Assembly: GCA_965249525.1 (NCBI GenBank)
Contig: OZ252237.1
Span: 1,156,443-1,220,442, forward strand
Length of the DNA: 64,000 nucleotides
Origin: a bacterium
GTDB lineage: Bacteria > SAR324 > JACQKK01
Direction of reading: 5' to 3'
Positions 9,298 to 32,090 of the stretch are shown here, in pieces. The notes beneath the pieces are model-generated. The model searched no databases, was not told where the DNA came from, and saw only the letters and a list, made by a program, of their open reading frames with translations. The position numbers and the translations under genes were made by a program. Numbering within the stretch: position 1 is the first letter of the stretch; each line of letters starts with the position of its first letter.

Positions 9298-9954
9298 ATG
9301 CGGTTTGTGTGGTTGTTGATTTTATGTGTATGGGGCAGTGGGGAATTGGCTGCGGAGACCGCTTGCAGGGGGGTGAAGGGGGAGGATGGGTTATCGCCGT
9401 GGTTGAGGGGGATAGCTTCTTGGTATGGGCCTGGATTTCACGGCAAGCGCACCGCCAACGGTGAGATTTATGATCAGCATGCCTTAACCGCAGCGCATCC
9501 CAATTTGCCGATGGGAACGCGCATTGAGGTTAAGAATCTGCACAATGGTCACAAGATTAAGCTGCGGGTTAATGATCGTGGGCCTTATTCCCGTGGGCGT
9601 GTTTTGGATGTATCGCGCACGGCTGCCATTCAGCTGCAAATGCTGCGAGTCGGGGTTGCTACGGTGCAGATTCAGGTCTTGTGCTGGCCAACAGATATAG
9701 ATCAGCACTTGGGGCTGATTGCCTATAGACAGTATGTGGTGCAGGTGGGGGTGTTTGACACCCAACTCGAGGCACAGGCAGCCTTGAATCAGCTGGAGAC
9801 GCAGGTGCAGATGCCCCTGCTTTTGGATCTGCGCCCCCATAAGGCTTACGCCCTGGTGGCGGGACCTTATTACTCAATCAGAAAAGCCCGACAGACAGCC
9901 ACCCTGCTGCAAAAAAAGGGTTGGAGTACCTTCATCCGACAGCGGCGAAAATAA
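9298..9954 (+). CDS. rlpA: Septal ring lytic transglycosylase RlpA-like protein (DPBB domain + C-terminal SPOR domain)
   Basis: GIASWYGPGFHGKRTANGEIYDQHALTAAHPNLPMGTRIEVKNL...KIKLRVNDRGPY. The C-terminal YVVQVGVFDTQLEAQAAL...ALVAGPY is SPOR-like. Start taken at the internal ATG that gives signal peptide MRFVWLLILCVWG. Confidence 0.85.
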   Translation: MRFVWLLILCVWGSGELAAETACRGVKGEDGLSPWLRGIASWYGPGFHGKRTANGEIYDQHALTAAHPNLPMGTRIEVKNLHNGHKIKLRVNDRGPYSRGRVLDVSRTAAIQLQMLRVGVATVQIQVLCWPTDIDQHLGLIAYRQYVVQVGVFDTQLEAQAALNQLETQVQMPLLLDLRPHKAYALVAGPYYSIRKARQTATLLQKKGWSTFIRQRRK

Positions 9955-17877: not shown

Positions 17878-18768
17878 TTATATGCTGAGTTCTTGCAGTG
17901 CCTTGATGCGATTTTCCAGCGGTGGGTGGGTAGCAAATAAAGCCATCATACCCTTGGGACGGGAAGAAATCTTCAAAGTATTCAAAGAAGCATGTTCTTT
18001 GCCAGCAGAAGCCATGGCAATGGTGCTTTGCAAGCCCTGCAGCGCCGCAACCATCTTGCCCTTGCCTGCCAAACGCGCCCCTCCTGCATCCGCATGATAC
18101 TCCCGCCAGCGAGAAAACCAACACACCACAATCATGCCTAAGAAACTCAAACCTATCTGCAAAACAATCACCACCATAAACTGCATAAACACCCGCCCCT
18201 CTTCTCGCGCATTGGCGGTAATGGCATATGCAATCACCCGCGCCAAGAACATCACAATGGCGTTTATCACCCCTTGCAACAAGGTCATGGTCACCATGTC
18301 CCCGTTGGTGATATGGGCAACCTCGTGTGCCAGCACCCCTTCTACCTGGTCGTTGTTCATGCGCGACAGCAGCCCACTGGACACCGCCACCAGCGACCTG
18401 TTGCGAGAAGGCCCGGTGGCAAATGCATTCACCTCGGGGCTGTCATAAATCCCCACCTGCGGCATCACCTTCATCTCCGCCTTGTTACAAATGGCATGCA
18501 CCCTCTCCATCAACGCCCGTTCGGAACCCCTGGCTTTATCGGGGGTTATCACCCGCACCCGCATCATCTTCTTTGCCATCCAGCGGGAAATCTGCAGCGA
18601 AATAAACGCCCCTCCCATACCCCACACCAAACAGATCAAAGCCAAAGAACCGTAGTTCAGCCCATACTCGGTTACATAAGAACCTATGCCCAAGAAGCTC
18701 ATCACCACAGTCAAGGTGGTGATAATTAATACATTGACCATCATGAAAAACATCATTCGTCTGAACAT
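17878..18768 (-). CDS. htpX: Membrane zinc metalloprotease HtpX
   Basis: 296 aa. HEVAH (HExxH) motif, 4 TM segments, GGAG SD 6 nt upstream. Confidence 0.9.
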   Translation of the reverse strand: MFRRMMFFMMVNVLIITTLTVVMSFLGIGSYVTEYGLNYGSLALICLVWGMGGAFISLQISRWMAKKMMRVRVITPDKARGSERALMERVHAICNKAEMKVMPQVGIYDSPEVNAFATGPSRNRSLVAVSSGLLSRMNNDQVEGVLAHEVAHITNGDMVTMTLLQGVINAIVMFLARVIAYAITANAREEGRVFMQFMVVIVLQIGLSFLGMIVVCWFSRWREYHADAGGARLAGKGKMVAALQGLQSTIAMASAGKEHASLNTLKISSRPKGMMALFATHPPLENRIKALQELSI

Positions 18769-18822
18769 TTGTTACTCCAATTCTTAAAAAAATGAATGCC
18801 TGTAAAACACCAAAACCGCATG

Positions 18823-18942
18823 CCTAGCGACCTTATACCTAGCGACCTTATACCTAGCGACCTTATACCTAGCGACCTTATACCTAGCGACCTTATACCT
18901 AGCGACCTTATACCTAGCGACCTTATACCTAGCGACCTTAAC
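18823..18942. repeat. 15-bp tandem repeat x8 (CCTAGCGACCTTATA) upstream of htpX
   Basis: Direct reading; seven perfect units and one variant. No spacers, so this is not a CRISPR array. Confidence 0.95.
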
Positions 18943-19197
18943 CACTCTTGCTAGTTGTTATACCATAAAAATCTACCTTCATCACCCTATCAGGACAACA
19001 GCAGGGTTGCAAATGGCTAAAATAGAAAAACCCCAGCTAGAAAAATCCCAGATAGCAACCATCTCCATGCTGCTTTTGAAAATGTACCCACAAATACCGC
19101 TGCTGCAAAATATACCAGAATTTAATCTTGCTGTTTGGGATTTATTTTTTTAGAATGGCGATGGTTGCTTTGCCCCGCCCCGCCAAAAATGTGATAA

Positions 19198-19274
19198 GAA
19201 GGCAGTGAGAAGGGAGAGAGGGGTAGTGAGGAAGGTAGTGAGAAGGCAGTGAGAAGGCAGTGAGAAGGCAGTGA
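19198..19274. repeat. 11-bp tandem repeat x~7 (GAAGGCAGTGA, partly degenerate)
   Basis: Direct reading. Confidence 0.8.
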
Positions 19275-19329
19275 GAGGGCAAAGAGGACACATAAGAGAA
19301 TACGCTGAAAGGGCGTAACAAAGTAAAAA

Positions 19330-19434
19330 CCAAGCAGAAAACCCAGCAGAAAACCCAGCAGAAAACCAAACAGAAAACCCAGCAGAAAACCCAGCAGAAA
19401 ACCCAGCAGAAAACCAAACAGAAAACCCAGCAGA
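19330..19434. repeat. 12-bp tandem repeat x~9 (CAGCAGAAAACC / CAAACAGAAAAC)
   Basis: Direct reading. Ends 12 bp before the AGGAGG of the 19457 ORF. Confidence 0.9.
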
Positions 19435-19456
19435 AGAAGCACGCCAGGAGGACAGC

Positions 19457-19768
19457 ATGCAAAATATCTTATCTGAAAGCCATCAAGAAAATATCAATCG
19501 CGGCATTGTATTGCTCATCTCCGGAGGGGCAACTGTACTATTAAAATGGGTGCTGCCAGCCGTAGCACCTTTGGCAGTAGTAGCATACGGCATTTATCGT
19601 TTATATACACGCAATTTTCGGGAAGGGGGCATTGCCATTATGATTGCCTTGCTGCTGTGGCTGCTGCGACATCAAGTTGGCTGGCTGCTGTGGGCAGTGG
19701 CTGCCTTAATGACAGGTCTCGGTCTGTTCCTGCTGATAGCTGGTCTGCGAGACCAACTCTCCAAATAA
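19457..19768 (+). CDS. Small integral membrane protein (hypothetical)
   Basis: 103 aa. AGGAGG-N5-ATG and three hydrophobic helices. Confidence 0.5.
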   Translation: MQNILSESHQENINRGIVLLISGGATVLLKWVLPAVAPLAVVAYGIYRLYTRNFREGGIAIMIALLLWLLRHQVGWLLWAVAALMTGLGLFLLIAGLRDQLSK

Positions 19769-19809
19769 CCCCCGCCAGCCTTGGAAAAACCTCCCGAGAC
19801 ATACCCGCC

Positions 19810-20505
19810 ATGAAATCTCTCGCTGTACCCATTTGCTTTATATGGCTGCCCCTGGCAGCCCTGCTGCTGCCCCCAACCGCAGCTGCCCAGTCTTCCATTC
19901 GCCTGGATGATTTCTCCTCACACTACCCCGCACAAACCGCCCCAGAAAACTGGGAGAAAAAAACCGTAAAACCCTTTGCCACCAGTAAAGGCGAACAATT
20001 TCAATTCGTCCACCGAGACAACGATCATTACATCCGCATGGCTACAGGACCCAAAAATTTCTTCAGCCTGGGACCCAAATCCACCTTCCAGCCCGCCCAA
20101 TTCCCCCTCATCCGATGGGAATGGCTGGTCAGATCCTTCCCAGGAGACACCGAAGCCTACCAAAGCCAGCGCCGCGACAAAGCTGCTTCACTCTGCCTGT
20201 TTGACAACCCCAAAAGTCGCAAAGCATACCGCGCTGTCTGCTATGTGTGGGAACTGGACGGTCCCAAAAACACCCCCTCCATACCCCCCTACAATAAACG
20301 CACCGCCTTCATCAGCCTGCGCACCCGCAAAGATGACAAGCCCCAGCAATGGAACACAGAACAACGCAACCTGCTGCAAGACTTCCAACGCATCTGGGGC
20401 AAAGCCCCCACCAAGGGACAAATTACCATCTTCGTTGACTCTGACACCTCCAAATCCCGCGCCGAAGCCCTCTTCCGCAATATCATCCTCTTCAAAGCAT
20501 CCTAA
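19810..20505 (+). CDS. Secreted protein, DUF3047-like
   Basis: Internal ATG of track ORF 19546..20505 gives signal peptide MKSLAVPICFIWLPLAALLLPPTAAAQ. IRWEWLV, VCYVWEL and IFVDSDTS...EALFRNIILF match my recollection of DUF3047 (not searched). Confidence 0.55.
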   Translation: MKSLAVPICFIWLPLAALLLPPTAAAQSSIRLDDFSSHYPAQTAPENWEKKTVKPFATSKGEQFQFVHRDNDHYIRMATGPKNFFSLGPKSTFQPAQFPLIRWEWLVRSFPGDTEAYQSQRRDKAASLCLFDNPKSRKAYRAVCYVWELDGPKNTPSIPPYNKRTAFISLRTRKDDKPQQWNTEQRNLLQDFQRIWGKAPTKGQITIFVDSDTSKSRAEALFRNIILFKAS

Positions 20506-20680
20506 GTCTTTCATTAAACCTCGGTTTGCCCGCAAGGCAGGCTGATTGACCATATCCCCCAGCAAACCACCCTCTGCCTGATGAGGAATCCCTGCTGGCA
20601 GCACCCCCCACTCTCGCAAAGAACTTTTGCTGGAAAAAGGGGGGCAAAGGGTATGATTTTTCCATAACCTTTGGCAGTAG

Positions 20681-20740
20681 CCTGGGCAATCTCCTGGGCA
20701 ATCTCCTGGGCAACCGCCTGGGCAACCGCCTGGGTGACAG
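20681..20740. repeat. 12-bp tandem repeat x5 (CCTGGGCAAYCK) upstream of mgtE
   Basis: Direct reading. Ends 45 bp before the mgtE ATG. Confidence 0.9.
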
Positions 20741-20784
20741 TCCTCTGGCAAACAGCAGGGGGGTGATTCCTTTGAGGGTTTCGC

Positions 20785-22149
20785 ATGAATCAAAGCAGCC
20801 AACAAGTTAAGAGGTTGTCGCCGTTGGAGGAACAGCTGCGACTGCTGTTTGCCCAGGGTCGGCGACGGCAGGTGATGAAATTGCTCAGCCAGGCTGCAGC
20901 CCAGGATGTGGCAGATGCGCTGATGGTGCTGGAACACCATGAACGTCAACAAGCGGTAAAGCTGCTGGTGGAAGAGCAATTGCCGCTGGTGGTGAAATCA
21001 TTACCGCATCATGGGCGTGCCCGTGTGCTGGAGGTGTTGTCGGAACGGCGGGTGAAGAAGCTGCTGCCCCAACTGGAATTAGATGATGCAGCCGATGTGC
21101 TGGAATTGCTGCCAGAGGGCTTGCAGCAGCGTATTTTAAGGGGGATGCCACACCGCAAGCGGCGCATGCTGGGGCAGCTGCTGCATTATCCCCAAGACCG
21201 AGCCGGGGGGATTATGAATCCCCATGTGTTGCGCATCAATCAACGTCACACAGTACAGCAGGCTGTGGCCACCATACGTGCCTATCTGCGTTTCACCAAT
21301 ATGGAAGGATTTTACAATGTATTCGTGGTGGATGCAGAAGGTCGCTTGAAGGGGCAGATTCCCGCCTGGCGCCTGATACTGGCATCGCAGCAAGCCCCAG
21401 TGACCGAATTGATGCGCCCCTGTCTGGTGAGTGTACATCCCTATGTGCATCAGCAGGAGGTGGCGCGCTTGGCAGTGCGGCACCGCTTGGTCAGTGTACC
21501 AGTGCTCAATCAGGAGGGGCAGTTGATTGGGCGGGTGACCATTGACGACATTGTGGATGTGATTCAACGCGAGCATCATGAAGATGTGGGTCATTTGAGT
21601 GGTACGGGCAGGGAACAGGTGCATGCTTTATCCTTATGGGAGACCTTGCGTACGCGCATGCCTTGGTTGTGGGTGGCTTTGGCGGGGGAGTTTGCCTTGG
21701 CGATGTTCATGCAGCGCAACGGAGTGGTGCTGGAACGGACACCACAGCTGGCGTTTTTTATTCCCTTGGTGATGGCCATGGGGGGCAATGCTGGGGTGCA
21801 GTCAGCCAGCTTGGTGCTGCGGGGTTTAGCCAGTGGGGAAATTCGTTTGCGGGATTTTTGGCGTCGGATGCAGCGGGAGCTGCTGGTGGCAGGCAGCCTA
21901 GGCACGGTGCTGGCCCTCATGATTGCCCTGGCTGCTGGCGGTTTGACCGCAGGCATCCGCCTGGGGGCAGCGGTGGGACTGGCTGCCTGGGTCAACATCT
22001 TTTTCTCTACCTTGTTTGGTACAGCCATCCCGCTGCTTTTGCAAAAGCTGGGCAAAGACCCCGCCCTGGCCACAGGACCGTTTATTACCACCCTGAATGA
22101 CATCCTGGGCGTTGCCATCTACTTGGGCATTGCGCTATGGTTGCTGTGA
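20785..22149 (+). CDS. mgtE: Magnesium transporter MgtE
   Basis: 454 aa. MgtE N-domain, a CBS pair (...FVVDAEGRLKGQI..., ...PVLNQEGQLIGRVTIDDIVDVI), and a 5-TM C-terminus with GGNAGVQS. Confidence 0.92.
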   Translation: MNQSSQQVKRLSPLEEQLRLLFAQGRRRQVMKLLSQAAAQDVADALMVLEHHERQQAVKLLVEEQLPLVVKSLPHHGRARVLEVLSERRVKKLLPQLELDDAADVLELLPEGLQQRILRGMPHRKRRMLGQLLHYPQDRAGGIMNPHVLRINQRHTVQQAVATIRAYLRFTNMEGFYNVFVVDAEGRLKGQIPAWRLILASQQAPVTELMRPCLVSVHPYVHQQEVARLAVRHRLVSVPVLNQEGQLIGRVTIDDIVDVIQREHHEDVGHLSGTGREQVHALSLWETLRTRMPWLWVALAGEFALAMFMQRNGVVLERTPQLAFFIPLVMAMGGNAGVQSASLVLRGLASGEIRLRDFWRRMQRELLVAGSLGTVLALMIALAAGGLTAGIRLGAAVGLAAWVNIFFSTLFGTAIPLLLQKLGKDPALATGPFITTLNDILGVAIYLGIALWLL

Positions 22150-22185
22150 CCTGCACCGTCACACCCAACCATCTAGGAGGCAGTC

Positions 22186-23079
22186 ATGGTGGAACCCACC
22201 AAAAGCAAAAAGATTGAACTGTTTCTAATAGATGGCACTGCCAACGGAACTATAATTGCTCTTGGAGAAAAATGCCAATTCATCACTGCCCCAAGAGACA
22301 CTCTTCCCTGGTCGTCAGAAGACGAAACTTACCAGCCATACATAAACAAAGGAGTTTATATTATCAAAGGCGAAGAAAAACTGTATGTAGGACAGAGTAA
22401 GAATATCCACACCCGAATTCTCCAACATAGAAGAGAAAAAGATTGGGAGTGGCAGCGTTGCTGTGCTCTCACTTGCAATCACGATTGGTTTGGAGCTGAA
22501 GAGATAGATTACTTGGAAGAACGCCTTATTAAATTGGCTCAAATAGATCCCGATGGAAGAAAACTAGAAACAGATATGCGTCATACACCCGCTTCTGTCC
22601 ATCTTAAGAATAAAGACAAAAAATTTGCAGATGAAATTTTACAGGAAGCCTTGCTGGTATTTCCCTTGCTGGGGTTTGACTTTTTCTATGACAGCAGCAA
22701 TGCTGCCAAAGATGTCAGCATTCCCATTTTTAAGATAGAACAAGGGAAAATAACCGCAAGCGTCCGACTGCAAGACGACAAATGGGTGGTGCTAAAAGAT
22801 TCTCTCGGCAGACTTGAATTCACCCCCTCTTGGAAAACGCACTCTCTGGGCTACTATAAACAGAGAGAACGTTTGAAAGAAAATGGCATCTTGCAGCCAC
22901 AAGGAGACATGTTGGTATTTACCCAAGACACCCCCTTTGACAGTTCCTCCGCAGCAGCATCGGTTATTTATGGAATAGCGCAGAATGGCTACAAAATATG
23001 GAGAGTCCCAGAGGAAGGCAAACGTTACTCCCAGTGGCAGACTTATGGCGAGTGGGAAGACAGCCGACCAGAATCATGA
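22186..23079 (+). CDS. GIY-YIG nuclease-domain protein with C-terminal DUF4357-like module (array copy 1)
   Basis: 297 aa. AGGAGG-N5-ATG, 36 nt after the mgtE stop. KGVYIIKGEEKLYVGQSKNIHTRILQH...YLEERL fits the GIY/YIG/Arg/Glu pattern. C-terminal FDSSSAAASVIYGIAQNGYKIW fits the SxSAA...NG..W signature recalled for DUF4357. Visibly more AT-rich than copies 2, 3 and 5. Confidence 0.8.
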   Translation: MVEPTKSKKIELFLIDGTANGTIIALGEKCQFITAPRDTLPWSSEDETYQPYINKGVYIIKGEEKLYVGQSKNIHTRILQHRREKDWEWQRCCALTCNHDWFGAEEIDYLEERLIKLAQIDPDGRKLETDMRHTPASVHLKNKDKKFADEILQEALLVFPLLGFDFFYDSSNAAKDVSIPIFKIEQGKITASVRLQDDKWVVLKDSLGRLEFTPSWKTHSLGYYKQRERLKENGILQPQGDMLVFTQDTPFDSSSAAASVIYGIAQNGYKIWRVPEEGKRYSQWQTYGEWEDSRPES

Positions 23080-23128
23080 TCATAGTTCTTGATCTTATGC
23101 TACGGTGCAGCAGCAGTAAAATCGCAGG

Positions 23129-23185
23129 ATGACGCATAGCCTGGGCGTTGCCATCTACTTGGGCATTGCGCTATGGTTGCTGTGA
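23129..23185 (+). other. mgtE 3'-tail relic recast as an 18-codon mini-ORF (MTHSLGVAIYLGIALWLL*)
   Basis: 23140-23185 is identical to mgtE 22104-22149. An in-frame ATG lies at 23129. It is followed by GTGAC-N7-GTCAC and AGGAGG. Confidence 0.6.
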
Positions 23186-23221
23186 CTTGCACCGTCACAC
23201 CCAACCATCTAGGAGGCAGTC

Positions 23222-24115
23222 ATGATGGAACCCACCAAAAGCAAGACAGTTCAACTGACTTTTGAGGAGGGCACGCCCCACGGGATTGTCAATGTCAAGA
23301 GCCTCACCTCCCCCTACAATATTATGGCTGCCCCCCGCAACAGCCTGAACCAGCTGCCAGGCGAAAAAACCTACCAAAAACCAGGGAATTATTTGCTTAA
23401 AGGCGAAACAGAGGAGGGTTTAACCTTGTATGTGGGTCAAAGCGATAAGGTGCTCAAGCGCATCAAGCAACATAAGCGTGAAAGAGAATGGTGGACACAC
23501 TGCTGCCTGTTGACCTGCAAAAGCGACTGGCTCAATATTTCTCATGCACGCTACCTGGAACACCGCTTGTACCAACTTGCCCAAAACAACGGTGGTGTAA
23601 AGCTGGATAATGATATTGTGCCCACCCCTTCCTCTCTCTCCGAAGGACAGGCAACCGCCGCAGAAAATTTTCTGCAGGCTGCCTTGCTGGTATTGCCCTT
23701 GCTGGGGTTTGACTTTTTCTATGACAGCAGCAATGCTGCCCAAGATGCCCGCATTCCTATTTTTAAGCTAGAAATAGGCAATTCAAATGCAAGCGCCCGA
23801 CTGCAAGACGACAAATGGGTTGTACTAAAAGGATCTATTGCCAGAGGTGAAGAAGCCGATACTTTGAAAACATACGCTCCAGGATACTCTAAACAGAGAG
23901 AACGTTTGATAGAAAATAAAATTTTGCAGCCACAAGGAGAAGACATGTTGAAATTTATCCAAGACACCCCATTTACCAGCTCTTCCGCAGCAGCATCGGT
24001 TGTTTATGGACAACTGCTGAATGGACGCCAAACATGGAAAGTCCCAGAGGAAGGCAAACCTTACTCTCAGTGCCAGACTTATGGCGAGTGGGAAGACAGC
24101 CGACCAGAATCATGA
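23222..24115 (+). CDS. GIY-YIG nuclease-domain protein with C-terminal DUF4357-like module (array copy 2)
   Basis: 297 aa. GNYLLKGETEEGLTLYVGQSDKVLKRIKQH...YLEHRL, and C-terminal FTSSSAAASVVYGQLLNGRQTW. Confidence 0.8.
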   Translation: MMEPTKSKTVQLTFEEGTPHGIVNVKSLTSPYNIMAAPRNSLNQLPGEKTYQKPGNYLLKGETEEGLTLYVGQSDKVLKRIKQHKREREWWTHCCLLTCKSDWLNISHARYLEHRLYQLAQNNGGVKLDNDIVPTPSSLSEGQATAAENFLQAALLVLPLLGFDFFYDSSNAAQDARIPIFKLEIGNSNASARLQDDKWVVLKGSIARGEEADTLKTYAPGYSKQRERLIENKILQPQGEDMLKFIQDTPFTSSSAAASVVYGQLLNGRQTWKVPEEGKPYSQCQTYGEWEDSRPES

Positions 24116-24164
24116 TCATGGTTCTTGATCTTATGCTACGAGGCAGCAGCAGTAAAATCGCAGG

Positions 24165-24221
24165 ATGACGCATAGCCTGGGCGTTGCCATCTACTTGGGC
24201 ATTGCGCTATGGTTGCTGTGA
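24165..24221 (+). other. mgtE 3'-tail relic / 18-codon mini-ORF
   Basis: Same sequence and geometry as 23129-23185. Confidence 0.6.
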
Positions 24222-24257
24222 CTTGCACCGTCACACCCAACCATCTAGGAGGCAATC

Positions 24258-25148
24258 ATGAAGCAAAACCCGCAATCCAAGACAATTACACTATTTTTGG
24301 AAACTGGCACCCCCAACGGGGTGGTAAAGGCTGATGACCCCTCCTCCAACTGCCAAATTGCCGCTGCCCCCCGCAACCAGTTGCGCCAGCTGCTAGGCCA
24401 GAAAAAGTACCAAAAACCAGGGGCTTATCTGCTGAAAGGCGAACCAGAGGAGGATTTAACCCTGTATGTGGGTAAAACCAATAATTTCTCTGATCGCATT
24501 AAGAACCATGATTCCAAAAAAGACTGGTGGACACACTGCTGCCTGATAAACTCCAAAGATAAATGGCTAAATTCTGCTGATGCAGGCTACCTGGAACACC
24601 ACTTGTACCAACTTGCCAAAAGCAACGGGCAAGTAAGGCTGACTAACGAAAACGAGCCCTCTTCTCCTGATATCGCCGAAGACCGGGCAGTCGTCGCAGA
24701 AAATTTTCTGCAGGCTGCCTTGCTGATTTTCCCTTTGCTGGAGTTTAACTTTTTCTATGACAGTACCAGCACCCCCAAAGATGCCAGCATTCCCATTTTT
24801 AAGCTAGAAACCAAGAAAGTAGAGGCAACTGCCCGACTGCAAGGCGACAAATGGATTGTGCTAAAAGGTTCTTTTGCCGATCTTACAGCTGCCAGCTATT
24901 TAGAAAAGGACTATCCAGGCTACTATAAACGGAGAGAACGTTTGATAGAAAATGACATCTTGAAGAAACAAGGAGACATGTTGGTATTTACCCAAGATGC
25001 CCCATTTAACAGCCCTTCCACAGCAGCATCAATTATTATTGGAAAACCTTCTAATGGACGCCAAACATGGAAAGCACAAGAGAAGGGTAAAGCTTACTCC
25101 CAGTGGCAGACTTATGGCGAGTGGGAAGACAGCCGACCAGAATCATGA
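24258..25148 (+). CDS. GIY-YIG nuclease-domain protein with C-terminal DUF4357-like module (array copy 3)
   Basis: 296 aa. GAYLLKGEPEEDLTLYVGKTNNFSDRIKNH...YLEHHL, and C-terminal FNSPSTAASIIIGKPSNGRQTW. Confidence 0.8.
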   Translation: MKQNPQSKTITLFLETGTPNGVVKADDPSSNCQIAAAPRNQLRQLLGQKKYQKPGAYLLKGEPEEDLTLYVGKTNNFSDRIKNHDSKKDWWTHCCLINSKDKWLNSADAGYLEHHLYQLAKSNGQVRLTNENEPSSPDIAEDRAVVAENFLQAALLIFPLLEFNFFYDSTSTPKDASIPIFKLETKKVEATARLQGDKWIVLKGSFADLTAASYLEKDYPGYYKRRERLIENDILKKQGDMLVFTQDAPFNSPSTAASIIIGKPSNGRQTWKAQEKGKAYSQWQTYGEWEDSRPES

Positions 25149-25197
25149 TCATGGTTCTTGATCTTATGCTACGAGGCAGCAGCAGTAAAATCGCAGG

Positions 25198-25290
25198 ATG
25201 ACGCATAGCCTGGGCGTTGCCATCTGCCTGGGCGTTGCCATCTGCCTGGGCGTTGCCATCTACTTGGGCATTGCGCTATGGTTGCTGTAA
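25198..25290 (+). other. mgtE 3'-tail relic / 30-codon mini-ORF, extended by two in-frame 18-bp repeats
   Basis: CCTGGGCGTTGCCATCTG x3 at 25209-25262. The ORF stays open and ends at TAA 25288-25290. Confidence 0.6.
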
Positions 25291-25326
25291 CCTGCACCGT
25301 CACACCCAACCATCTAGGAGGCAATC

Positions 25327-26220
25327 ATGATGGAACCCACCAAAAGCAAAAAGATTGAACTGTTTCTAATAGATGGCACTGCCAACGGAACTATAATTGC
25401 TCTTGGAGAAAAATGCCAATTCATCACTGCCCCAAGAGACACTCTTCCCTGGTCGTCAGAAGACGAAACTTACCAGCCATACATAAACAAAGGAGTTTAT
25501 ATTATCAAAGGCGAAGAAAAACTGTATGTAGGACAGAGTAAGAATATCCACACCCGAATTCTCCAACATAGAAGAGAAAAAGATTGGGAGTGGCAGCGTT
25601 GCTGTGCTCTCACTTGCAATCACGATTGGTTTGGAGCTGAAGAGATAGATTACTTGGAAGAACGCCTTATTAAATTGGCTCAAATAGATCCCGATGGAAG
25701 AAAACTAGAAACAGATATGCGTCATACACCCGCTTCTGTCCATCTTAAGAATAAAGACAAAAAATTTGCAGATGAAATTTTACAGGAAGCCTTGCTGGTA
25801 TTTCCCTTGCTGGGGTTTGACTTTTTCTATGACAGCAGCAATGCTGCCAAAGATGTCAGCATTCCCATTTTTAAGATAGAACAAGGCAAAATAACCGCAA
25901 GCGTCCGACTGCAAGACGACAAATGGGTGGTGCTAAAAGATTCTCTCGGCAGACTTGAATTCACCCCCTCTTGGAAAACGCACTCTCTGGGCTACTATAA
26001 ACAGAGAGAACGTTTGAAAGAAAATGGCATCTTGCAGCCACAAGGAGACATGTTGGTATTTACCCAAGACACCCCCTTTGACAGTTCCTCCGCAGCAGCA
26101 TCGGTTATTTATGGAATAGCGCAGAATGGCTACAAAATATGGAGAGTCCCAGAGGAAGGCAAACGTTACTCCCAGTGGCAGACTTATGGCGAGTGGGAAG
26201 ACAGCCGACCAGAATCATGA
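25327..26220 (+). CDS. GIY-YIG nuclease-domain protein with C-terminal DUF4357-like module (array copy 4, near-identical to copy 1)
   Basis: Line-by-line comparison with 22186-23079 (offset 3141) shows only 2 substitutions: 22189 G/A (V2M) and 22746 G/C (synonymous). Confidence 0.8.
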   Translation: MMEPTKSKKIELFLIDGTANGTIIALGEKCQFITAPRDTLPWSSEDETYQPYINKGVYIIKGEEKLYVGQSKNIHTRILQHRREKDWEWQRCCALTCNHDWFGAEEIDYLEERLIKLAQIDPDGRKLETDMRHTPASVHLKNKDKKFADEILQEALLVFPLLGFDFFYDSSNAAKDVSIPIFKIEQGKITASVRLQDDKWVVLKDSLGRLEFTPSWKTHSLGYYKQRERLKENGILQPQGDMLVFTQDTPFDSSSAAASVIYGIAQNGYKIWRVPEEGKRYSQWQTYGEWEDSRPES

Positions 26221-26269
26221 TCATGGTTCTTGATCTTATGCTACGGTGCAGCAGCAGTAAAATCGCAGG

Positions 26270-26344
26270 ATGACGCATAGCCTGGGCGTTGCCATCTGCC
26301 TGGGCGTTGCCATCTACTTGGGCATTGCGCTATGGTTGCTGTGA
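26270..26344 (+). other. mgtE 3'-tail relic / 24-codon mini-ORF, with one extra in-frame 18-bp repeat
   Basis: CCTGGGCGTTGCCATCTG x2 at 26281-26316. The ORF is open through TGA 26342-26344. Confidence 0.6.
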
Positions 26345-26380
26345 CTTGCACCGTCACACCCAACCATCTAGGAGGCAGTC

Positions 26381-27781
26381 ATGATGGAACCCACCAAAAG
26401 CAAGACAGTTCAACTGACTTTTGAGAATGGCACGCCCCACGGGATTGTCAATGTCAAGAGCCTCACCTCCCCCTACAATATTATGGCTGCCCCCCGCAAC
26501 AGCCTGAGCCAGCTGCCAGGCGAAAAAACCTACCAAAAACCAGGGAATTATTTGCTTAAAGGCGAAACAGAAGAAGATTTAACCCTGTATGTGGGTCAAA
26601 GCGATGATGTCCTCAAACGCATCAAGCAACATTATCAAAAAAAAGAATGGTGGACACACTGCTGCCTGTTGACCAGTAAAGGCGACGAACTCAACATCTC
26701 TCATACACGCTATCTGGAACGCTGCTTGTACGATCTTGCCCAAGACAACGGTTATGTAAAGCTGGACAATGAGAAGGCACCCGACTCTTCCCCTCTCTCC
26801 CAAGAACAGAAAAACGAAGCAGAACATTTTCTTCAGGATGCCTTGCTGGTATTTCCCTCGCTGGGTTTTAACTTTTTCTATGACAGCGCCGGCCGTCCCC
26901 AAGCTGCCAGCCCTGCCATTGCTAAGGATAAGAAAGAATCATCCGACAGCACCCCTGCTGCCAAAGATGTGAGCATTCCCATTTTTAAGATAAAACAAGG
27001 CAAAATAACCGCAACTGTCCAACTGCAAGACGACAAATGGGTGGTGCTAAAAGATTCTCTCGGCAGACTTGAATTCACCCCCTCTTGGAAAACGCACTCT
27101 CTGGGCTACTATAAACAGAGAGAACGTTTGAAAGAAAATGGCATTTTGCAGAAACAAGGAGAAACCTTAATTTTTACCCAAGACACCCCATTTACCAGCC
27201 CTTCCGCAGCAGCATCCATTGTTCTTGCAAGCACCATGAATGGTTACAAAACATGGAGAGTCCCAGAGGAAAACAAACCTTACTCCCAGTGGCAGACTTA
27301 TGGCGAGTGGGAAAAAATCTACCTAGAAGCTACCTCAGATGCCAGCCTTCCCGTTTCCAAGAGTGAAAGAGACCCATCCTATGACGGTGCCAGTGCTGCC
27401 AAAGATGCCAGCCTTCCCATTTTTAAGGTAAAAATAGGCAAAGCAAATGCAAGCGCCCGACTGCAAGGCGACAAATGGGTGGTGCTAAAAGGTTCTCTCG
27501 GCAGACTTGAATTCACCCCCTCTTTGAAAACGCACTTTCTGGGCTACTATAAACAGAGAGAACGTTTGAAAGAAAATGGCATTTTGCAGGAACAAGAAGA
27601 CACCTTAATTTTTACCCAAGACACCCCATTTACCAGCTCTTCCGCAGCAGCATCCATTGTTCTTGCAAGACCCCTGAATGGCTACAAAACATGGAAAGTC
27701 CCAGAAAAAGACAAACCTTACTCCCAGTGGCAGACTTATGGCGAGTGGGAAGCAACCCAGCTAGAAGCCGCCGCCTCATGA
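26381..27781 (+). CDS. GIY-YIG nuclease-domain protein with two tandem C-terminal DUF4357-like modules (array copy 5)
   Basis: 466 aa. The N-terminus is nearly identical to copy 2 for about the first 60 codons. The C-module (AAKD.S.PIFK...QTYGEWE) occurs twice with a 438-bp period (from 26960 and from 27398). Confidence 0.8.
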   Translation: MMEPTKSKTVQLTFENGTPHGIVNVKSLTSPYNIMAAPRNSLSQLPGEKTYQKPGNYLLKGETEEDLTLYVGQSDDVLKRIKQHYQKKEWWTHCCLLTSKGDELNISHTRYLERCLYDLAQDNGYVKLDNEKAPDSSPLSQEQKNEAEHFLQDALLVFPSLGFNFFYDSAGRPQAASPAIAKDKKESSDSTPAAKDVSIPIFKIKQGKITATVQLQDDKWVVLKDSLGRLEFTPSWKTHSLGYYKQRERLKENGILQKQGETLIFTQDTPFTSPSAAASIVLASTMNGYKTWRVPEENKPYSQWQTYGEWEKIYLEATSDASLPVSKSERDPSYDGASAAKDASLPIFKVKIGKANASARLQGDKWVVLKGSLGRLEFTPSLKTHFLGYYKQRERLKENGILQEQEDTLIFTQDTPFTSSSAAASIVLARPLNGYKTWKVPEKDKPYSQWQTYGEWEATQLEAAAS

Positions 27782-27821
27782 TGCTGTGTGCCTGTTTCTC
27801 ATATAGAATGGACAGCTGCCT

Positions 27822-28667
27822 ATGAAAGGTGTGATTCTAGCCGCCGGCTACGGCAGCCGTTTTCTGCCCGCCTCTAAAACCATTCCCAAAGAACTCTTTC
27901 CCCTGCTGGACAAGCCTGCCATTGCCTTCATCGTAGAAGAATTTATCCAGGCAGGCATTGAACAGCTGATTGTGGTCACCTCCCGTCGTAAAAAACCACT
28001 GGATGATTTCTTTGACCGCGAAATAGAACTAGAACAAGCCCTAACTGGCGAAAAAAGAAAGTGCATTATCCCTCCCCAATTGGATGTATGCCTGCTGCAC
28101 CAGCAGCGCATGCTGGGTTCTGGCGACGCCTTAATGCAGCTGGAAGCCTGGGTAGGCAAGGAAGCCTTTGTGGTAGCTTATCCCGATGACATCCATATGG
28201 ATGGACCCTCGCTGACCGCACAGCTGATGGCAGTACACCAGCGCAGCCAGCGCAGTGTGCTTTCTTTGCAGGAAACCCCAGGCGATATCTCACGCTACGG
28301 CGTGGCAGTAGTCAAATCGCAGCATGGCGTACAACTGGTCACCCAACTGGTAGAAAAACCCCCCCAGGGCAAAGAACCCAGTCGCTTGGTCAGTTATGGA
28401 CGCTACCTGTACACCTCAGAAATTTTCAGCGCACTTAAACAAACACGGGCGTATTTCAGTGGCTCGGGTGAATTTACCCAAACCCAAGCCATCCAGCAGC
28501 TGGCCACAGAAGGACGCATGGCAGCGGTAACTTTTGAGGGTCGCATTTTGGATGTGGGAGAACCAGCAGGATACTTAAAATCCATCATAGCGTATGCCCT
28601 CACACGCCCAGATCTTAAAGAAGAACTGCTGCATTTTATCAAAGAGGTCAGTGCCCGCCACAACTAA
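27822..28667 (+). CDS. galU: UTP--glucose-1-phosphate uridylyltransferase
   Basis: MKGVILAAGYGSRFLPASKTIPKELFPLLDKPAIAFIVEE..., the canonical GalU N-terminus. Confidence 0.9.
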   Translation: MKGVILAAGYGSRFLPASKTIPKELFPLLDKPAIAFIVEEFIQAGIEQLIVVTSRRKKPLDDFFDREIELEQALTGEKRKCIIPPQLDVCLLHQQRMLGSGDALMQLEAWVGKEAFVVAYPDDIHMDGPSLTAQLMAVHQRSQRSVLSLQETPGDISRYGVAVVKSQHGVQLVTQLVEKPPQGKEPSRLVSYGRYLYTSEIFSALKQTRAYFSGSGEFTQTQAIQQLATEGRMAAVTFEGRILDVGEPAGYLKSIIAYALTRPDLKEELLHFIKEVSARHN

Positions 28668-28726
28668 GCCCCTGGTAAAAGCAGCGGGCAGGATTTTATG
28701 AAGGCAGGGAGGAGATTTGACACAGC

Positions 28727-30043
28727 ATGGCAGGATTGGTTGTAGTAGGAGCGCAGTGGGGGGATGAAGGCAAGGGCAAATTGGTGGATTTGCTCACGCA
28801 GCACGCAGAAATGGTGGTGCGGTTTCAAGGAGGCAGCAACGCAGGACACACCGTATATGTTGGGAATAAAAGCTTTGTGCTGCATTTAATTCCCTCGGGG
28901 ATTTTTCATGCCAAGACCGTAAGCGTGCTGGGCAACGGGGTGGTGATAGACCCCCAGGCGCTGCTAAAAGAAATCCAACAGCTGCAAGCAGGGGGAGTCA
29001 ATGTAGCCAAGAATTTACGCATCAGCAGAACCGCGCACTTGGTCATGCCTTACCACAAAGCCTTTGACCTGCTGCGAGAAAAACTACGCGGTGCTGGCAA
29101 AATTGGCACCACAGGTCGGGGCATCGGCCCTACCTATGAAGACAAAATGGCACGTCGCGGCATACGCTTTTGCGACCTGGAAGAGTTGTCAGCCGACAAC
29201 CTGCGCCTAAACCTGACACAGATCCTAGCAGAGAAAAATCTGCTGCTGCACCAACTATACGGCAGCCAGCAAGCCCCCCTGCAAGCCGATGCCATTCTGC
29301 AGGAGTACCTGCAATACCATCAACAACTCAAACCCTTCCTGTGTGATGCCTCTCAACTGGTCAACCAAGCCCTGGATGCAGGCAAACTGGTACTATTTGA
29401 AGGCGCTCAAGGCTGCGGACTAGATGTAGACCACGGCAGCTACCCCTATGTCACCTCCTCCAATACAGTGGCAGGCGGTGCCTGCACTGGCAGCGGAGTG
29501 GGACCCACCCGCATCTCGCAGGTACTGGGCATCACCAAGGCCTACACCACCCGCGTGGGAGAAGGACCCTTCCCCACAGAACTGCAGCAAGACCCCGTGG
29601 GAGAACACTTGAGCCAGCAGGGGCAAGAATTCGGTGCCACCACAGGAAGAACAAGACGCTGCGGCTGGTTTGATGCCGTCATCGTCAAACAAGCCATCCG
29701 CCTCAGTTCCATCACAGCCCAAGCCCTCACCAAACTGGATGTACTCAGCGGACTAAAAATACTCAAAATCGCCCACGCCTGGTGCGATGACCAAGGCAAC
29801 CACTTCCAAGACGCTCCCCATCACTTCAGCCAGCGCAGCAACCTGCGCCCCGTCTATGAAGAACTCCCAGGATGGCAAACCTCCCTGCGCAACATCACCC
29901 AATGGCAGCATCTCCCCCAAAATGCCCAACGCTACGTCCAACGTATAGAAACCCTCACCGGCGTCCCCGCAGCCATCATCTCCGTGGGGCCGCATCGCCA
30001 TGAAACCATATGGAGAGAACCCCTGCTGCAACTGATGAAATAA
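28727..30043 (+). CDS. purA: Adenylosuccinate synthetase
   Basis: 438 aa. GAQWGDEGKGK, GTTGRGIGPTYEDK. Confidence 0.97.
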   Translation: MAGLVVVGAQWGDEGKGKLVDLLTQHAEMVVRFQGGSNAGHTVYVGNKSFVLHLIPSGIFHAKTVSVLGNGVVIDPQALLKEIQQLQAGGVNVAKNLRISRTAHLVMPYHKAFDLLREKLRGAGKIGTTGRGIGPTYEDKMARRGIRFCDLEELSADNLRLNLTQILAEKNLLLHQLYGSQQAPLQADAILQEYLQYHQQLKPFLCDASQLVNQALDAGKLVLFEGAQGCGLDVDHGSYPYVTSSNTVAGGACTGSGVGPTRISQVLGITKAYTTRVGEGPFPTELQQDPVGEHLSQQGQEFGATTGRTRRCGWFDAVIVKQAIRLSSITAQALTKLDVLSGLKILKIAHAWCDDQGNHFQDAPHHFSQRSNLRPVYEELPGWQTSLRNITQWQHLPQNAQRYVQRIETLTGVPAAIISVGPHRHETIWREPLLQLMK

Positions 30044-30051
30044 GCCCCGCC

Positions 30052-30936
30052 ATGCACCCCTCCCGCCTCCCACAACAACTGGTAGCCTGGCTGGAAAACC
30101 TCCAGCGAAGCAAAATGCGCTACCTCAGCGGTATTCAACCCCTGTCTGCACTCCCTGTCCCCACAACTCCGCAGCCCACACCGCAGCCCACACCACAGCC
30201 CACACCACAGCCCACACCGCAGCCCACACCACAGCCCACACCACAGCCCACACCACAGCCCACACCACAGCCCACGGCACAGCCCACACCGCAGCCCCCT
30301 GCCACACCCCCCATGACCAACCATCCCAGCTTCCAAGACTCCCTGCTGTTCCATCACAGCCAAGCCGAAAAAATCGCCGCCCAAACCCATACCCTGGAAG
30401 ACCTCCACACCGCCTTTGCCACCTGCACCCGCTGCCGATTGGCGCAAAACCGCATCCAACTAGTCTTCGGCTGCGGCAACCCGCATCCAGGCATCGTCTT
30501 CATCGGTGAAGGTCCAGGGGCAGAAGAAGACCAACAAGGACTCCCCTTCGTGGGAGCCGCAGGACGCCTGCTCACCGACCTCATCTCCGCTATGGGATTA
30601 ACCCGCCAGGATGTCTATATCGCTAATATCGTTAAATGCCGACCCCCAAGCAATCGCAACCCCCAGCCCGATGAAATCCAAGCCTGCATGCCCATCCTCA
30701 ACCACCAACTCCAATTGCTCAACCCCAAACTCATGGTGACACTAGGTGCTGTGCCCCTCAATGCTCTGATACCCAACTCCCCAGGCATTACCCACGCCCG
30801 CGGACACCTGACCCAGTACCGACAATGGCCGCTGCTGCCCACCTACCACCCCTCCTACCTGCTGCGAAAACCCTCAGCACTGGACGAATGCTGGCAGGAT
30901 TTTCACCAGGCCCTCAAACAGGTCTATGCCAGTTAG
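30052..30936 (+). CDS. Family-4 uracil-DNA glycosylase with an N-terminal (PQPT)n extension
   Basis: GNPHPGIVFIGEGPGAEEDQQGLPFVGAAGRLL...IANIVKCRPPSNRNP...HPSYLLR. Start taken at the ATG just after the purA stop. Confidence 0.85.
   Translation: MHPSRLPQQLVAWLENLQRSKMRYLSGIQPLSALPVPTTPQPTPQPTPQPTPQPTPQPTPQPTPQPTPQPTPQPTAQPTPQPPATPPMTNHPSFQDSLLFHHSQAEKIAAQTHTLEDLHTAFATCTRCRLAQNRIQLVFGCGNPHPGIVFIGEGPGAEEDQQGLPFVGAAGRLLTDLISAMGLTRQDVYIANIVKCRPPSNRNPQPDEIQACMPILNHQLQLLNPKLMVTLGAVPLNALIPNSPGITHARGHLTQYRQWPLLPTYHPSYLLRKPSALDECWQDFHQALKQVYAS
30169..30297. repeat. 12-bp tandem repeat x~11 (CCRCAGCCCACA) in the UDG N-terminal extension
   Basis: Direct reading. In frame, encoding (PQPT)n. Confidence 0.9.
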
Positions 30937-30983
30937 ACCTGCTGCTGATGCTGAGTCTCTCCCATAAGCTCAGCCCATCCAAG

Positions 30984-31020
30984 CTGCCCCCTAGAACACT
31001 GCCCCCTAGAACACTGCCCA
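30984..31020. repeat. 15-bp tandem repeat x2.4 (CTGCCCCCTAGAACA)
   Basis: Direct reading. Confidence 0.8.
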
Positions 31021-31054
31021 CAAAGCTCTTGCTTTAAATATCTCCTTAAACGGT

Positions 31055-31083
31055 TTGACAAATCGGGGTTGTGTCGTTAAGGT
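31055..31083 (+). promoter_or_regulatory. Sigma-70-like promoter candidate (TTGACA-17 nt-TAAGGT)
   Basis: Perfect -35 at 31055-31060, a 17-nt spacer, and a TAnnnT -10 at 31078-31083. It faces the ORF-poor region. Sequence match only. Confidence 0.3.
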
Positions 31084-31089
31084 AAGTTA

Positions 31090-31802
31090 TGCCAGCAGGT
31101 TCCTCCCCGTTTGGGGCATGAATTGTGTGTCACCAGGCCAGTGAAGCTCATATGGTTTGCGTGATCTCTGTGATGCGTTAGGGTTGCTTGGGTAACCATA
31201 GCAGCCATAACGTCACCTGGGATATGGTAAGTGAATTATTATCATGTTCTATGTGGTTGATGTCTTGGACGGCTGTGGGTTCATAAGTGAGGAACACTGC
31301 CTGTCGGCATGGGCGTTGGTTAACAGCCAGGCATGCCCTGCAGCTATGGACGCATAGCAGGAGGTATTGCAGCGCCGGTGATGGACAGACAGAGGGTGTT
31401 TGCACCCACCATGTGGATGGGGGTTGAAGGGATTTGGGAGTCTGCCGAGGACTAGATAGAGTCAATGGCAGACAGCACGGACTGTAGCTGATCTTGTTTC
31501 TTCTGCAAACAGAGAGACACAGGTGACAGACAGCCAACTGCCTAAGGCAGGGCTGATGATGGCCTCTTGGGCAGACCGCGGCGGACAGCGGTTGCAGCTT
31601 GGCTGCGTACTTGCTGGCTGTGCGGTTAATGCAATTCCTGCTGAGGTGAACAATCGGCAGGTTCAGCAATGGGAGTCGGAGGCTGCGTCATGCCGCAAGA
31701 TACTTCCAAATCAATATCCACAGCGTCACAGGTGTGGAATGAATGACGCCCGCGAAAACTGAGGCTTATAGGCTGCGCCAGAAAGTTTTTCCTTTAATAT
31801 CC
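31090..31802 (+). ncRNA. Candidate large structured non-coding RNA (unclassified)
   Basis: ~0.7 kb with no credible ORF, average GC, downstream of the promoter-like element. Many local hairpins: 31344-31359 GCTATG-GACG-CATAGC; 31440-31472 GTCTGCC/GGCAGAC; 31393-31406 GGGTG-TTTG-CACCC; 31685-31749 GCGTCAT/ATGACGC enclosing CCACA/TGTGG. No known RNA family was recognised by eye. Confidence 0.25.
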
Positions 31803-31916
31803 GTTGTTCCCTAAACGGAATGAGTCAGCCTGCTGCTGAGAAAAAACAGCACAAGTCAAGCAGTATCCCACACCCTGGCAACCCCCCTTCAACCCCCATC
31901 CATCCACATTTTTTAA

Positions 31917-32090
31917 AACATTGATAAATTTTCTGTGAGGAGGAGATAAGCAGTTTTTTTGGAACATTGATAAATTTTCTGCGAGGAGGAGATAAGCAGT
32001 TCTAAAAAGTTCTAAAAAGTTCTAAAAAAAGCTGCAACTCTGCTGTAAGGAAGAGGCAAGCAGTTCTAAAAAATTCTAAAAAATATTGTG
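31917..32090. repeat. Composite repeat: 46-bp unit x2 (AACATTGATAAATTTTCTGYGAGGAGGAGATAAGCAG...), GTTCTAAAAA x3, and a further core copy
   Basis: Core CTGYGAGGAGGAGATAAGCAG at 31933 and 31979; a variant at 32043. Confidence 0.85.

Follow-up and report, generated by a model that had tools for sequence, protein, structure and literature searches.

The mgtE-galU interval and its tandem genes

This study concerns an array of five tandem genes in a 64,000-nucleotide (nt) stretch of DNA (hereafter, the window) from a bacterium of the SAR324 lineage (GenBank assembly GCA_965249525.1, contig OZ252237.1, positions 1,156,443 to 1,220,442 of the forward strand). An earlier note, made from the letters of the DNA alone, had proposed a recent block duplication and the exchange of segments between paralogs at this locus. 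The ORF list of the window showed that five open reading frames (ORFs), all on the plus strand and arranged head to tail, fill the interval between mgtE, which encodes a Mg2+ transporter, and a gene for a galU-like nucleoside triphosphate transferase. The products are predicted GIY-YIG nucleases with a C-terminal DUF4357 module. Our analyses resolved the anatomy of the array, provided statistical support for its mosaic structure, and showed that it was inserted into a conserved gene pair, diversified in place and kept its catalytic residues.

The array begins directly after mgtE (20785..22149, plus strand), whose MgtE_N, CBS and MgtE domains were annotated on the counterpart gene in a related metagenome contig, L014. 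Unit 1 (u1; 297 amino acids (aa), 22186..23079, plus strand, as for all units) has a divergent N-domain, termed type A, and the common allele of the C-module. Unit 2 (u2; 297 aa, 23222..24115) is a mosaic with a C-module allele that is unique to it. Unit 3 (u3; 296 aa, 24258..25148) has its nearest counterpart in the first unit of L014, v1, to which it is 81% identical in the N-domain and 91% identical in the C-module. Unit 4 (u4; 297 aa, 25327..26220) is a twin of u1, the two genes differing at 2 nt that correspond to V2M and one synonymous change. Unit 5 (u5; 466 aa, 26381..27781) has a u2-like head, a body nearest to that of the second L014 unit, v2, and two C-modules (26963-27313 and 27401-27751, plus strand) with a period of 438 nt. 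Its linker carries a 20-aa insertion, and its terminal tail, ATQLEAAAS, is common to u5 and the third L014 unit, v3. The galU-like gene (27822..28667, plus strand) follows; relatives have it immediately downstream of mgtE.

All five ORFs are intact, each with a start codon and the same Shine-Dalgarno sequence and leader, and this holds despite nt divergence of up to 45%. The unit repeats are direct, not inverted. There was no recombinase ORF in the ORF list for 18000-32000 of the window, and no further copy of the gene family was found elsewhere in this genome.

The units are separated by four spacers of 142–178 nt (23080-23221, 24116-24257, 25149-25326 and 26221-26380, plus strand) that are 95–100% identical to one another. 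Each spacer comprises, in order, a 60-nt left part, copies of an 18-mer (CCTGGGCGTTGCCATCTG; 1, 1, 3 and 2 copies in spacers 1 to 4, respectively), a relic of the mgtE tail, and a 36-nt leader that contains AGGAGG. The template of the relic is the last 46 nt of mgtE (22104-22149), and it is present in every spacer, with no relic found 3' of the last unit, u5. The presence of this mgtE end together with the leader in each spacer indicated that the unit that was amplified began inside mgtE.

Several further features of the spacers were observed. An in-frame ATG ACG CAT AGC precedes each relic, creating in each spacer a mini-ORF that reads MTHS-LGVAIYLGIALWLL up to its stop codon (23129-23182, 24165-24218, 25198-25287 and 26270-26341). 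The length of the mini-ORF shifts by six codons with every extra 18-mer; L014 has yet other counts. The source of the 18-mer is a near-repeat within the mgtE tail (LGVAIY / LGIALW). By consensus matching only, a promoter-like TTGCCA-18-TATGGT lies inside the mgtE tail (22112-22141) and was copied with the relics at 23148, 24184, 25253 and 26307, while no terminator-like site was detected on the plus strand between units. In addition, a local hairpin (GGTTGCTGTGAC...GTCACACCCAACC) occurs at 22137-22169, where it spans the mgtE stop, and in each spacer; its left arm is the mgtE end and its right arm the inserted leader. The RNA fold energies of the leader and spacer were not beyond those of shuffled sequences (z -0.4 and 0.0).

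A near-identical 1.31-kb block

BLASTN and global alignment showed that 22104-23412 and 25245-26571 are 99.4% identical over 1309 nt. Copy A (22104..23412, plus strand) comprises the mgtE tail, the leader, the whole of u1, spacer 1 and the first 191 nt of u2. Copy B (25245..26571, plus strand) comprises an mgtE-tail relic, the leader, the whole of u4, spacer 4, which has an additional 18-mer, and the first 191 nt of u5. The two copies differ by eight substitutions (at 22148, 22183, 22189, 22746, 23084, 23267, 23269 and 23349) and one 18-nt indel, which represents a copy-number change of the 18-mer in the spacer. The near-identity of 22150-23395 and 25291-26555 that had been described earlier lies inside this block, which is longer by 46 nt on the left, where it takes in the 3' end of mgtE or the corresponding relic, and by 17 nt on the right. 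The similarity had, however, been described as a 3.1-kb block duplication, and this description needs correction: the starts of the two copies are 3141 nt apart and the intervening sequence, the rest of u2 and u3, is not repeated, so that what is present is a 1.31-kb tract at a spacing of 3.14 kb.

The right end of the block is abrupt. A maximum chi-squared (max-chi2) test placed a breakpoint between u2 and u5 after 23412/26571, with three differences in the 274 nt to its left (1.1%) and 55 in the 316 nt to its right (17.4%; permutation p<0.001), and the identity of u2 and u5 beyond this point was ~83%. The sharp divergence of these two units past the block, also proposed in the earlier note, was thus borne out, and the sliding-window identity comparison that it suggested revealed sharp breakpoints instead of uniform divergence.

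The copies of the block diverge by 0.6%, whereas the divergence of this genome from the nearest relative sampled is ~5%, which indicated that the block is younger than the split of the two genomes or has been kept homogenized. The block is thus either the youngest exchange event in the array or a tract that is maintained by homogenization. Two routes to it fit the data. In the first, a single conversion tract would have copied u4, its spacer and the u5 head to the beginning of the array, or have run in the opposite direction. In the second, u5 and an ancestral u2 would have undergone unequal crossover in their conserved head region, and the first units would then have been deleted via the mgtE relic. 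The machinery is common to both routes, and we make no choice between them.

Finer mosaicism and recombination statistics

Mosaicism was also evident at a much finer scale than the earlier note had described. When the units were painted in 40-nt windows, the best match of each switched every 40–200 nt along its length. The N-domain of u1 and u4 is only 54–61% identical at the nt level to the other N-domains, and the end of this domain in u1, together with the FFYDS linker (22627-22700), is 98–100% identical to u2 (23660-23733). The corresponding break between u1 and u2, after 22626/23659, separated 38% from 7.6% differences; p was <0.001 for all of the max-chi2 breakpoints.

A second example is the start of the first C-module of u5 (26963..27144, plus strand), which is 96.7% identical to both 22708-22889 (u1) and 25849-26030 (u4). 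The comparison with u1 showed six differences in 182 nt and included a 123-nt identical run (22767-22889), while the same stretch of u5 was 60–88% identical to u2 (in 40-nt windows), supporting the previous observation that this module resembles those of u1 and u4 and not that of u2. After 22889 the identity of u5 and u1 falls to 81%. In u2, the head (nt 1-191) matches those of u5 and L014 v2 and the body matches L014 v3 (95–100%). Breakpoints also fall within domains, for instance at 23412, between the GIY and YIG strands.

These patterns were supported by tests over all units. In a test similar to the pairwise homoplasy index (PHI), computed on 151 biallelic informative sites, the incompatibility of neighboring sites was lower than that of shuffled sites (0.395 vs 0.485 +/- 0.008; 0/2000 permutations, p<0.0005). 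A GENECONV-like test identified, for 10 of the 21 pairs of units, a run of agreeing polymorphic sites that was unmatched in 5000 permutations (p<0.0002). The trees of different segments also conflicted. In the tree of the head (ORF nt 1-190), u2, u5 and v2 formed a clade with support of 100/99, and a grouping of u2 with v3 was rejected (approximately unbiased (AU) test, p 2e-5). In the tree of the middle of the C-module, u1, u5, v2 and v3 were grouped with support of 90/92, a grouping that the N-domain rejects (AU p 9e-11).

Judged from these alignments, the exchange of segments among the paralogs by homologous recombination is real, as the significant breakpoints, the conflict between the N-domain and C-module trees, and the rearranged alleles in L014 all attest. 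The earlier note had proposed that N-domains and C-modules are shuffled independently; however, exchange is not by domain only, as it involves tracts of 40–200 nt with breaks inside domains.

The same alleles in a related assembly

L014 is a metagenome contig (European Nucleotide Archive ERZ25069801, contig_58) with the gene order htpX, DUF3047, mgtE, array, galU, purA, and its flanks are 92–96% identical to those of the window. Its array has three units, v1, v2 and v3, that are u3-like, u5-like and u2-body-like, in that order. The u5-like v2 has a doubled C-module, and v3 joins a u2 body (95–100% identical) to a v1 head and to the terminal tail found in u5. No type-A N-domain, as in u1, was present in the L014 array. 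The mgtE relic recurs in the L014 spacers, where the copy numbers of the 18-mer are different. The occurrence of the same segment alleles in other combinations in two independent assemblies indicated that both the pieces and their reassortment are biological.

Two of the L014 units have apparent frameshifts. In v1 (7377-8276) a -1 shift in a C run is followed ~130 nt later by a +1 shift in an A run, and in v2 (9560-9620) there is an extra A within a C run in the second C-module. Since they are in or beside C and A runs, these shifts may be consensus errors; otherwise they represent real inactivation.

Insertion site and origin of the array

Of 12 family-level relatives, 11 have galU as the immediate downstream neighbor of mgtE, on the same strand and 50–200 nt away. 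This conserved adjacency indicated that the array was inserted between two genes that are normally paired. The GC content of the array (45–49%) differs from that of its flanks (52–59%), and a 7-bp direct repeat, TGCTGTG, is present at both edges of the whole array (22142..22148 and 27782-27788, plus strand), the right partner following the u5 stop. The same pair of repeats is found at the edges of the L014 array. When the flanks are joined at TGCTGTG, MgtE becomes 12 residues longer and ends at a TGA that overlaps the galU ATG (ATGA); this frame is open in both genomes. The MgtE proteins of relatives end at the present position, so the 12-residue extension is not needed.

All array members of both genomes, u1 included, formed one clade relative to the 50 nearest outside relatives, with N-domain support of 100/98 and C-module support of 100/100, and the nearest outside proteins are ~35% identical to those of the array. 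This single clade, and the lack of another copy in the genome, pointed to a single founder gene whose descendants diversified at this site. An origin of the array by serial capture of unrelated cassettes was rejected because every unit belongs to the one clade. We found no close relative with an empty mgtE-galU site. A 1.6-Mb genome of the same genus, G001, was considered as an empty-site control (locus L013, C1:1140000-1157000); it has galU, purA and the uracil-DNA glycosylase gene in order, but without mgtE, and a 561-aa ORF is located upstream of galU. As mgtE is absent and synteny is broken exactly at the right end of the array, G001 was discarded as a control.

The outer neighbors of the array in the window are htpX, a DUF3047 gene and mgtE on one side and galU, purA and a uracil-DNA glycosylase gene on the other. 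Short tandem repeats occur in these flanks. The region between htpX and a small membrane-protein gene has two intergenic arrays (18800-18964, a 15-nt unit repeated 8 times, and 19302-19459, a 12-nt unit repeated 10 times). A 12-nt repeat of ~11 units (30142-30321) encodes (PTPQ)n in the N-terminal portion of the ORF for a uracil-DNA glycosylase-like protein (30010-30936), and two 46-nt tandem units with an SD-like (Shine-Dalgarno-like) core (31909-32000) lie upstream of a lipoprotein gene cluster.

Protein family and predicted function

The PADLOC models for the phage defense candidate PDC-S14, PDLC04923 and PDLC04925, matched all five proteins over residues ~2-286 with E values of 1.6e-53 to 1e-101. 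In the N-terminal half, the Pfam GIY-YIG model scored 17.6–23.6 bits (cut-off, 22.6), and in the C-terminal half DUF4357 scored 53.7–116 bits (cut-off, 38.4) in all five proteins, with two such stretches in u5. The Pfam RAMA model matched u5, and also distant homologs, below its cut-off (27 bits vs 35.2). The six residues of the GIY-YIG catalytic set (Y57, Y70, G72, R80, H84 and E113 in u3 numbering) are invariant in all copies and in homologs of 26–33% identity, and the near-invariant Asn130 is replaced by Thr only in u1 and u4. An AlphaFold (AF2) model of u3 had two well-predicted domains joined by a disordered linker (residues 169-176), with a mean predicted local distance difference test (pLDDT) score of 84.9. 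A sequence search of the PDB returned only a weak, irrelevant match (RsgI5, E 0.012), and a scan of genome contigs with an alignment of the five proteins gave pattern matches with no relative confirmed among them.

The family to which these proteins belong comprises 2199 representative clusters (E<=1e-3), mostly of ~300 aa. Three of its proteins, P0014, P0072 and P0080, have three, four and six DUF4357 modules in a row, respectively, which shows that module number varies across the family and not only in u5. A second nearby copy was found in none of 80 metagenome loci with relatives, 67 of which had at least 1 kb of flank on one side. Within the small phylum, DUF4357 was present in 4 of 88 genomes, and the three besides this genome have one gene each over the Pfam cut-off. 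The same-genus genome G001 lacks the family. Subunits of Type I restriction-modification (R-M) systems adjoin the single-copy relatives in 5 of the 7 loci tested, a count that is biased since large neighboring ORFs were chosen.

PDC systems were proposed on the basis of their location inside BREX, DISARM and Type I R-M systems (bioRxiv 10.1101/2024.01.29.577857). RAMA has been described as fused to URI (GIY-YIG) and other nucleases and is a predicted reader of N6-methyladenine (PMC4738411), and DUF4357 is fused to homologs of GmrSD and McrB (PMC4619093, PMC11090510). Based on these precedents, the array proteins are probably restriction-like, one-chain nucleases that would act in defense. The C-module would be the part that binds or reads DNA, possibly including its adenine methylation state, and reshuffling would then be expected to change the recognition of each copy.

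A proposed history of the array

The explanation that we favor, and consider probable as a whole, is that the locus is a tandem array of GIY-YIG/DUF4357 genes that arose from one founder and was reshaped by ordinary homologous recombination. A founder gene of lower GC content would have been inserted between mgtE and galU, and tandem duplication of a unit starting 46 nt inside the mgtE 3' end would then have left a relic in each spacer. Each product consists of an N-terminal GIY-YIG domain, a flexible linker and one or two C-terminal DUF4357/RAMA-like modules. Unequal crossing-over between the direct repeats would alter the number of units and modules, and gene conversion would copy tracts of 40–1300 nt. 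These exchanges would be resolved where the units are alike, that is, in spacer and leader, in the strand region of GIY-YIG, in the FFYDS linker, midway through the C-module and at the YGEWE end.

Several points weigh against this explanation. The block and the order of the units rest on one assembly. Near-identical junctions beside gene bodies that are 55% identical would also fit a cassette-like insertion. The 60-nt left part of the spacer has no likeness to the sequence after u5 beyond that of shuffled sequences (p 0.45), which leaves the duplication junction approximate. With regard to the statistics, the clades of the AU tests were named after seeing the data, and permutation of site order models rate variation incompletely. 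As for the predicted function, a Foldseek search of the PDB with the AF2 model of u3 returned nothing at E<=0.001, and no R-M, BREX or DISARM neighbor was present at the array, the nearest N6-methylase (N6_Mtase) genes being at least 130 kb away.

Selection on the paralogs

The earlier note had considered the pattern of exchange to be that expected of a locus selected for diversity. The ratio of nonsynonymous to synonymous polymorphism (pN/pS) exceeded 1 only in short patches (alignment codons 15-30, 135-150, 235-245 and 285-300), which are noisy, windowed ratios being unreliable on recombining sequences; in the catalytic core it was 0.08–0.2. The ratio of nonsynonymous to synonymous divergence (dN/dS) over whole genes was 0.44–0.94 for the paralogs. 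The loop after VLKGS in the C-module has three very different alleles that are bracketed by conserved DNA. One of these alleles is present in 4 of the 6 C-modules in the window and in 3 of 4 in L014, and its spread to four of six modules indicated homogenization.

These patches, the intact ORFs and the three bracketed loop alleles only suggest that diversity is selected. The duplication of u1 as u4, the spread of one loop allele and the high background dN/dS all speak against such selection, and much of the exchange homogenizes the units instead of diversifying them. Selection for diversity is therefore best regarded as a possibility.

A separate observation concerns the housekeeping flanks. 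Between the window and L014, the htpX, mgtE, galU and purA genes had a pS of 0.03–0.07 and a dN/dS of 0.18–0.65, a ratio that is high for genes of this kind and consistent with weak purifying selection in a reduced genome of 1.7 Mb.

With these data in hand, it could be argued that the exchanges are selectively neutral, a case of concerted evolution in a gene cluster that is decaying or dispensable and in a small genome where selection is weak, and that the mosaic is irrelevant to function. The dN/dS of the paralogs set beside that of the flanks, the redundancy of u1 and u4, the dominance of one loop allele, the apparent frameshifts in two of the L014 units and the absence of the family from G001 would all agree with this. 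We nevertheless think it unlikely, as five ORFs have stayed intact while diverging by up to 45% at the nt level, the catalytic residues do not vary, the catalytic core has a low pN/pS, and the L014 frameshifts, lying in or beside homopolymer runs, may be consensus errors.

Cassettes and assembly artifacts as alternatives

A different origin would be that the units are mobile cassettes, each composed of leader, nuclease gene, 60 nt and a copy of the target, that were inserted serially at the mgtE end, with the deep divergence of u1 reflecting a separate donor. The precedents would be integron cassettes or free-standing GIY-YIG homing endonucleases, and the ends of the cassettes would be what is seen as conserved junctions. 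A copy of the end of the target gene does precede each unit, the junctions are 95–100% identical beside gene bodies down to 54%, a 7-bp direct repeat flanks the array, and the array is inserted into a conserved gene pair. However, the well-supported single clade includes u1, and no closer relative of the u1 N-domain was found in 5.8 billion proteins. In addition, a relic is missing after u5, there is no recombinase gene in or beside the array, and repeated insertion was seen in 0/80 other loci of the family. Nor is the presumed DNA-binding part of the proteins of the homing-endonuclease type: it is DUF4357/RAMA, and the NCBIfam model for group I intron endonucleases (TIGR01453) scored 18 bits against a cut-off of 56. 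We regard this origin as quite improbable.

Very improbable, in our assessment, is that the block or the five-unit order is an artifact of assembly or polishing, with two strain haplotypes of a shorter array chained via their spacers or reads mis-assigned between paralogs: the genome appears to be a metagenome-type assembly, the 142–178 nt common to all spacers could mislead joining, and L014 has homopolymer-type frameshifts typical of long-read consensus errors, but the copies of the block differ at eight sites and by an indel, several of these differences are the states of other spacers, which would be unexpected from a duplicated consensus, a single 1.72-Mb contig would imply reads longer than the 5.7-kb array, the ORFs are all intact, and the mosaic is independent of the block, with the same alleles recombined in an assembly that is ~5% diverged.

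Comparison with known systems

Returning to a tandem array shaped by ordinary recombination, a close general parallel is concerted evolution by unequal crossing-over and gene conversion, a well-established process of population genetics. Tandem paralogs that evolve in concert are known from bacteria, for example the rRNA operons, the tuf genes and families of surface-protein genes. The array has in common with these its direct repeats, homogenized junctions, patchwork identity, significant breakpoints, and a copy number and order that differ between close relatives. It departs from the usual case in that gene bodies down to 54% nt identity stand beside tracts that are 100% identical, and in that its products are candidate immune nucleases. 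In the literature searched, no case of tandem conversion was found for the GIY-YIG plus DUF4357 family.

Programmed cassette systems include the gene conversion of Neisseria pilE/pilS and Borrelia vlsE and the hsdS shufflons of Type I R-M systems. As in those systems, conserved stretches in the array flank hypervariable segments and recombination yields new combinations. Unlike them, the array is without a single expression site, silent partial cassettes, inverted repeats or a site-specific recombinase.

With respect to the proteins, the array resembles PDC-S14 (Payne et al., bioRxiv 10.1101/2024.01.29.577857) in its full-length hidden Markov model matches, two-domain build and length of ~300 aa. 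PDC-S14, however, is described as a single gene embedded in other defense systems, whereas the array has five tandem paralogs in a housekeeping context, and one of them, u5, has a doubled C-module, unlike PDC-S14 as described. The array proteins also resemble the restriction endonucleases with RAMA domains that Iyer, Zhang and Aravind predicted (Bioessays 2016, PMC4738411), in which a URI/GIY-YIG nuclease is likewise combined with a RAMA-type module. They differ from that prediction in that their curated match is to DUF4357, with RAMA below its cut-off, and in the lack of an adjoining methylase.

Implications

The recombination process at this locus is itself ordinary. A more far-reaching idea, which we hold to be doubtful, is that the array is a standing combinatorial library of immune nucleases, in which heads, bodies and one or more DUF4357 readers, each with its own hypervariable loop, are re-paired and new restriction specificities are obtained from few alleles. 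If so, the homogenized junctions would be kept because they drive shuffling, and the array would have a mechanism like that of antigenic variation that serves defense rather than evasion.

Proteins that combine GIY-YIG and DUF4357 are widespread defense candidates, and this locus together with L014 provides a natural set of chimeras that shows where swaps are tolerated. The patches that vary fastest, the C-module loop after VLKGS and the N-terminal strands, are direct hypotheses for the mapping of specificity. For the organism, the locus represents a single-gene defense candidate that a reduced genome has captured between two housekeeping genes, amplified and preserved intact, a situation that is unique relative to the 80 sampled loci.

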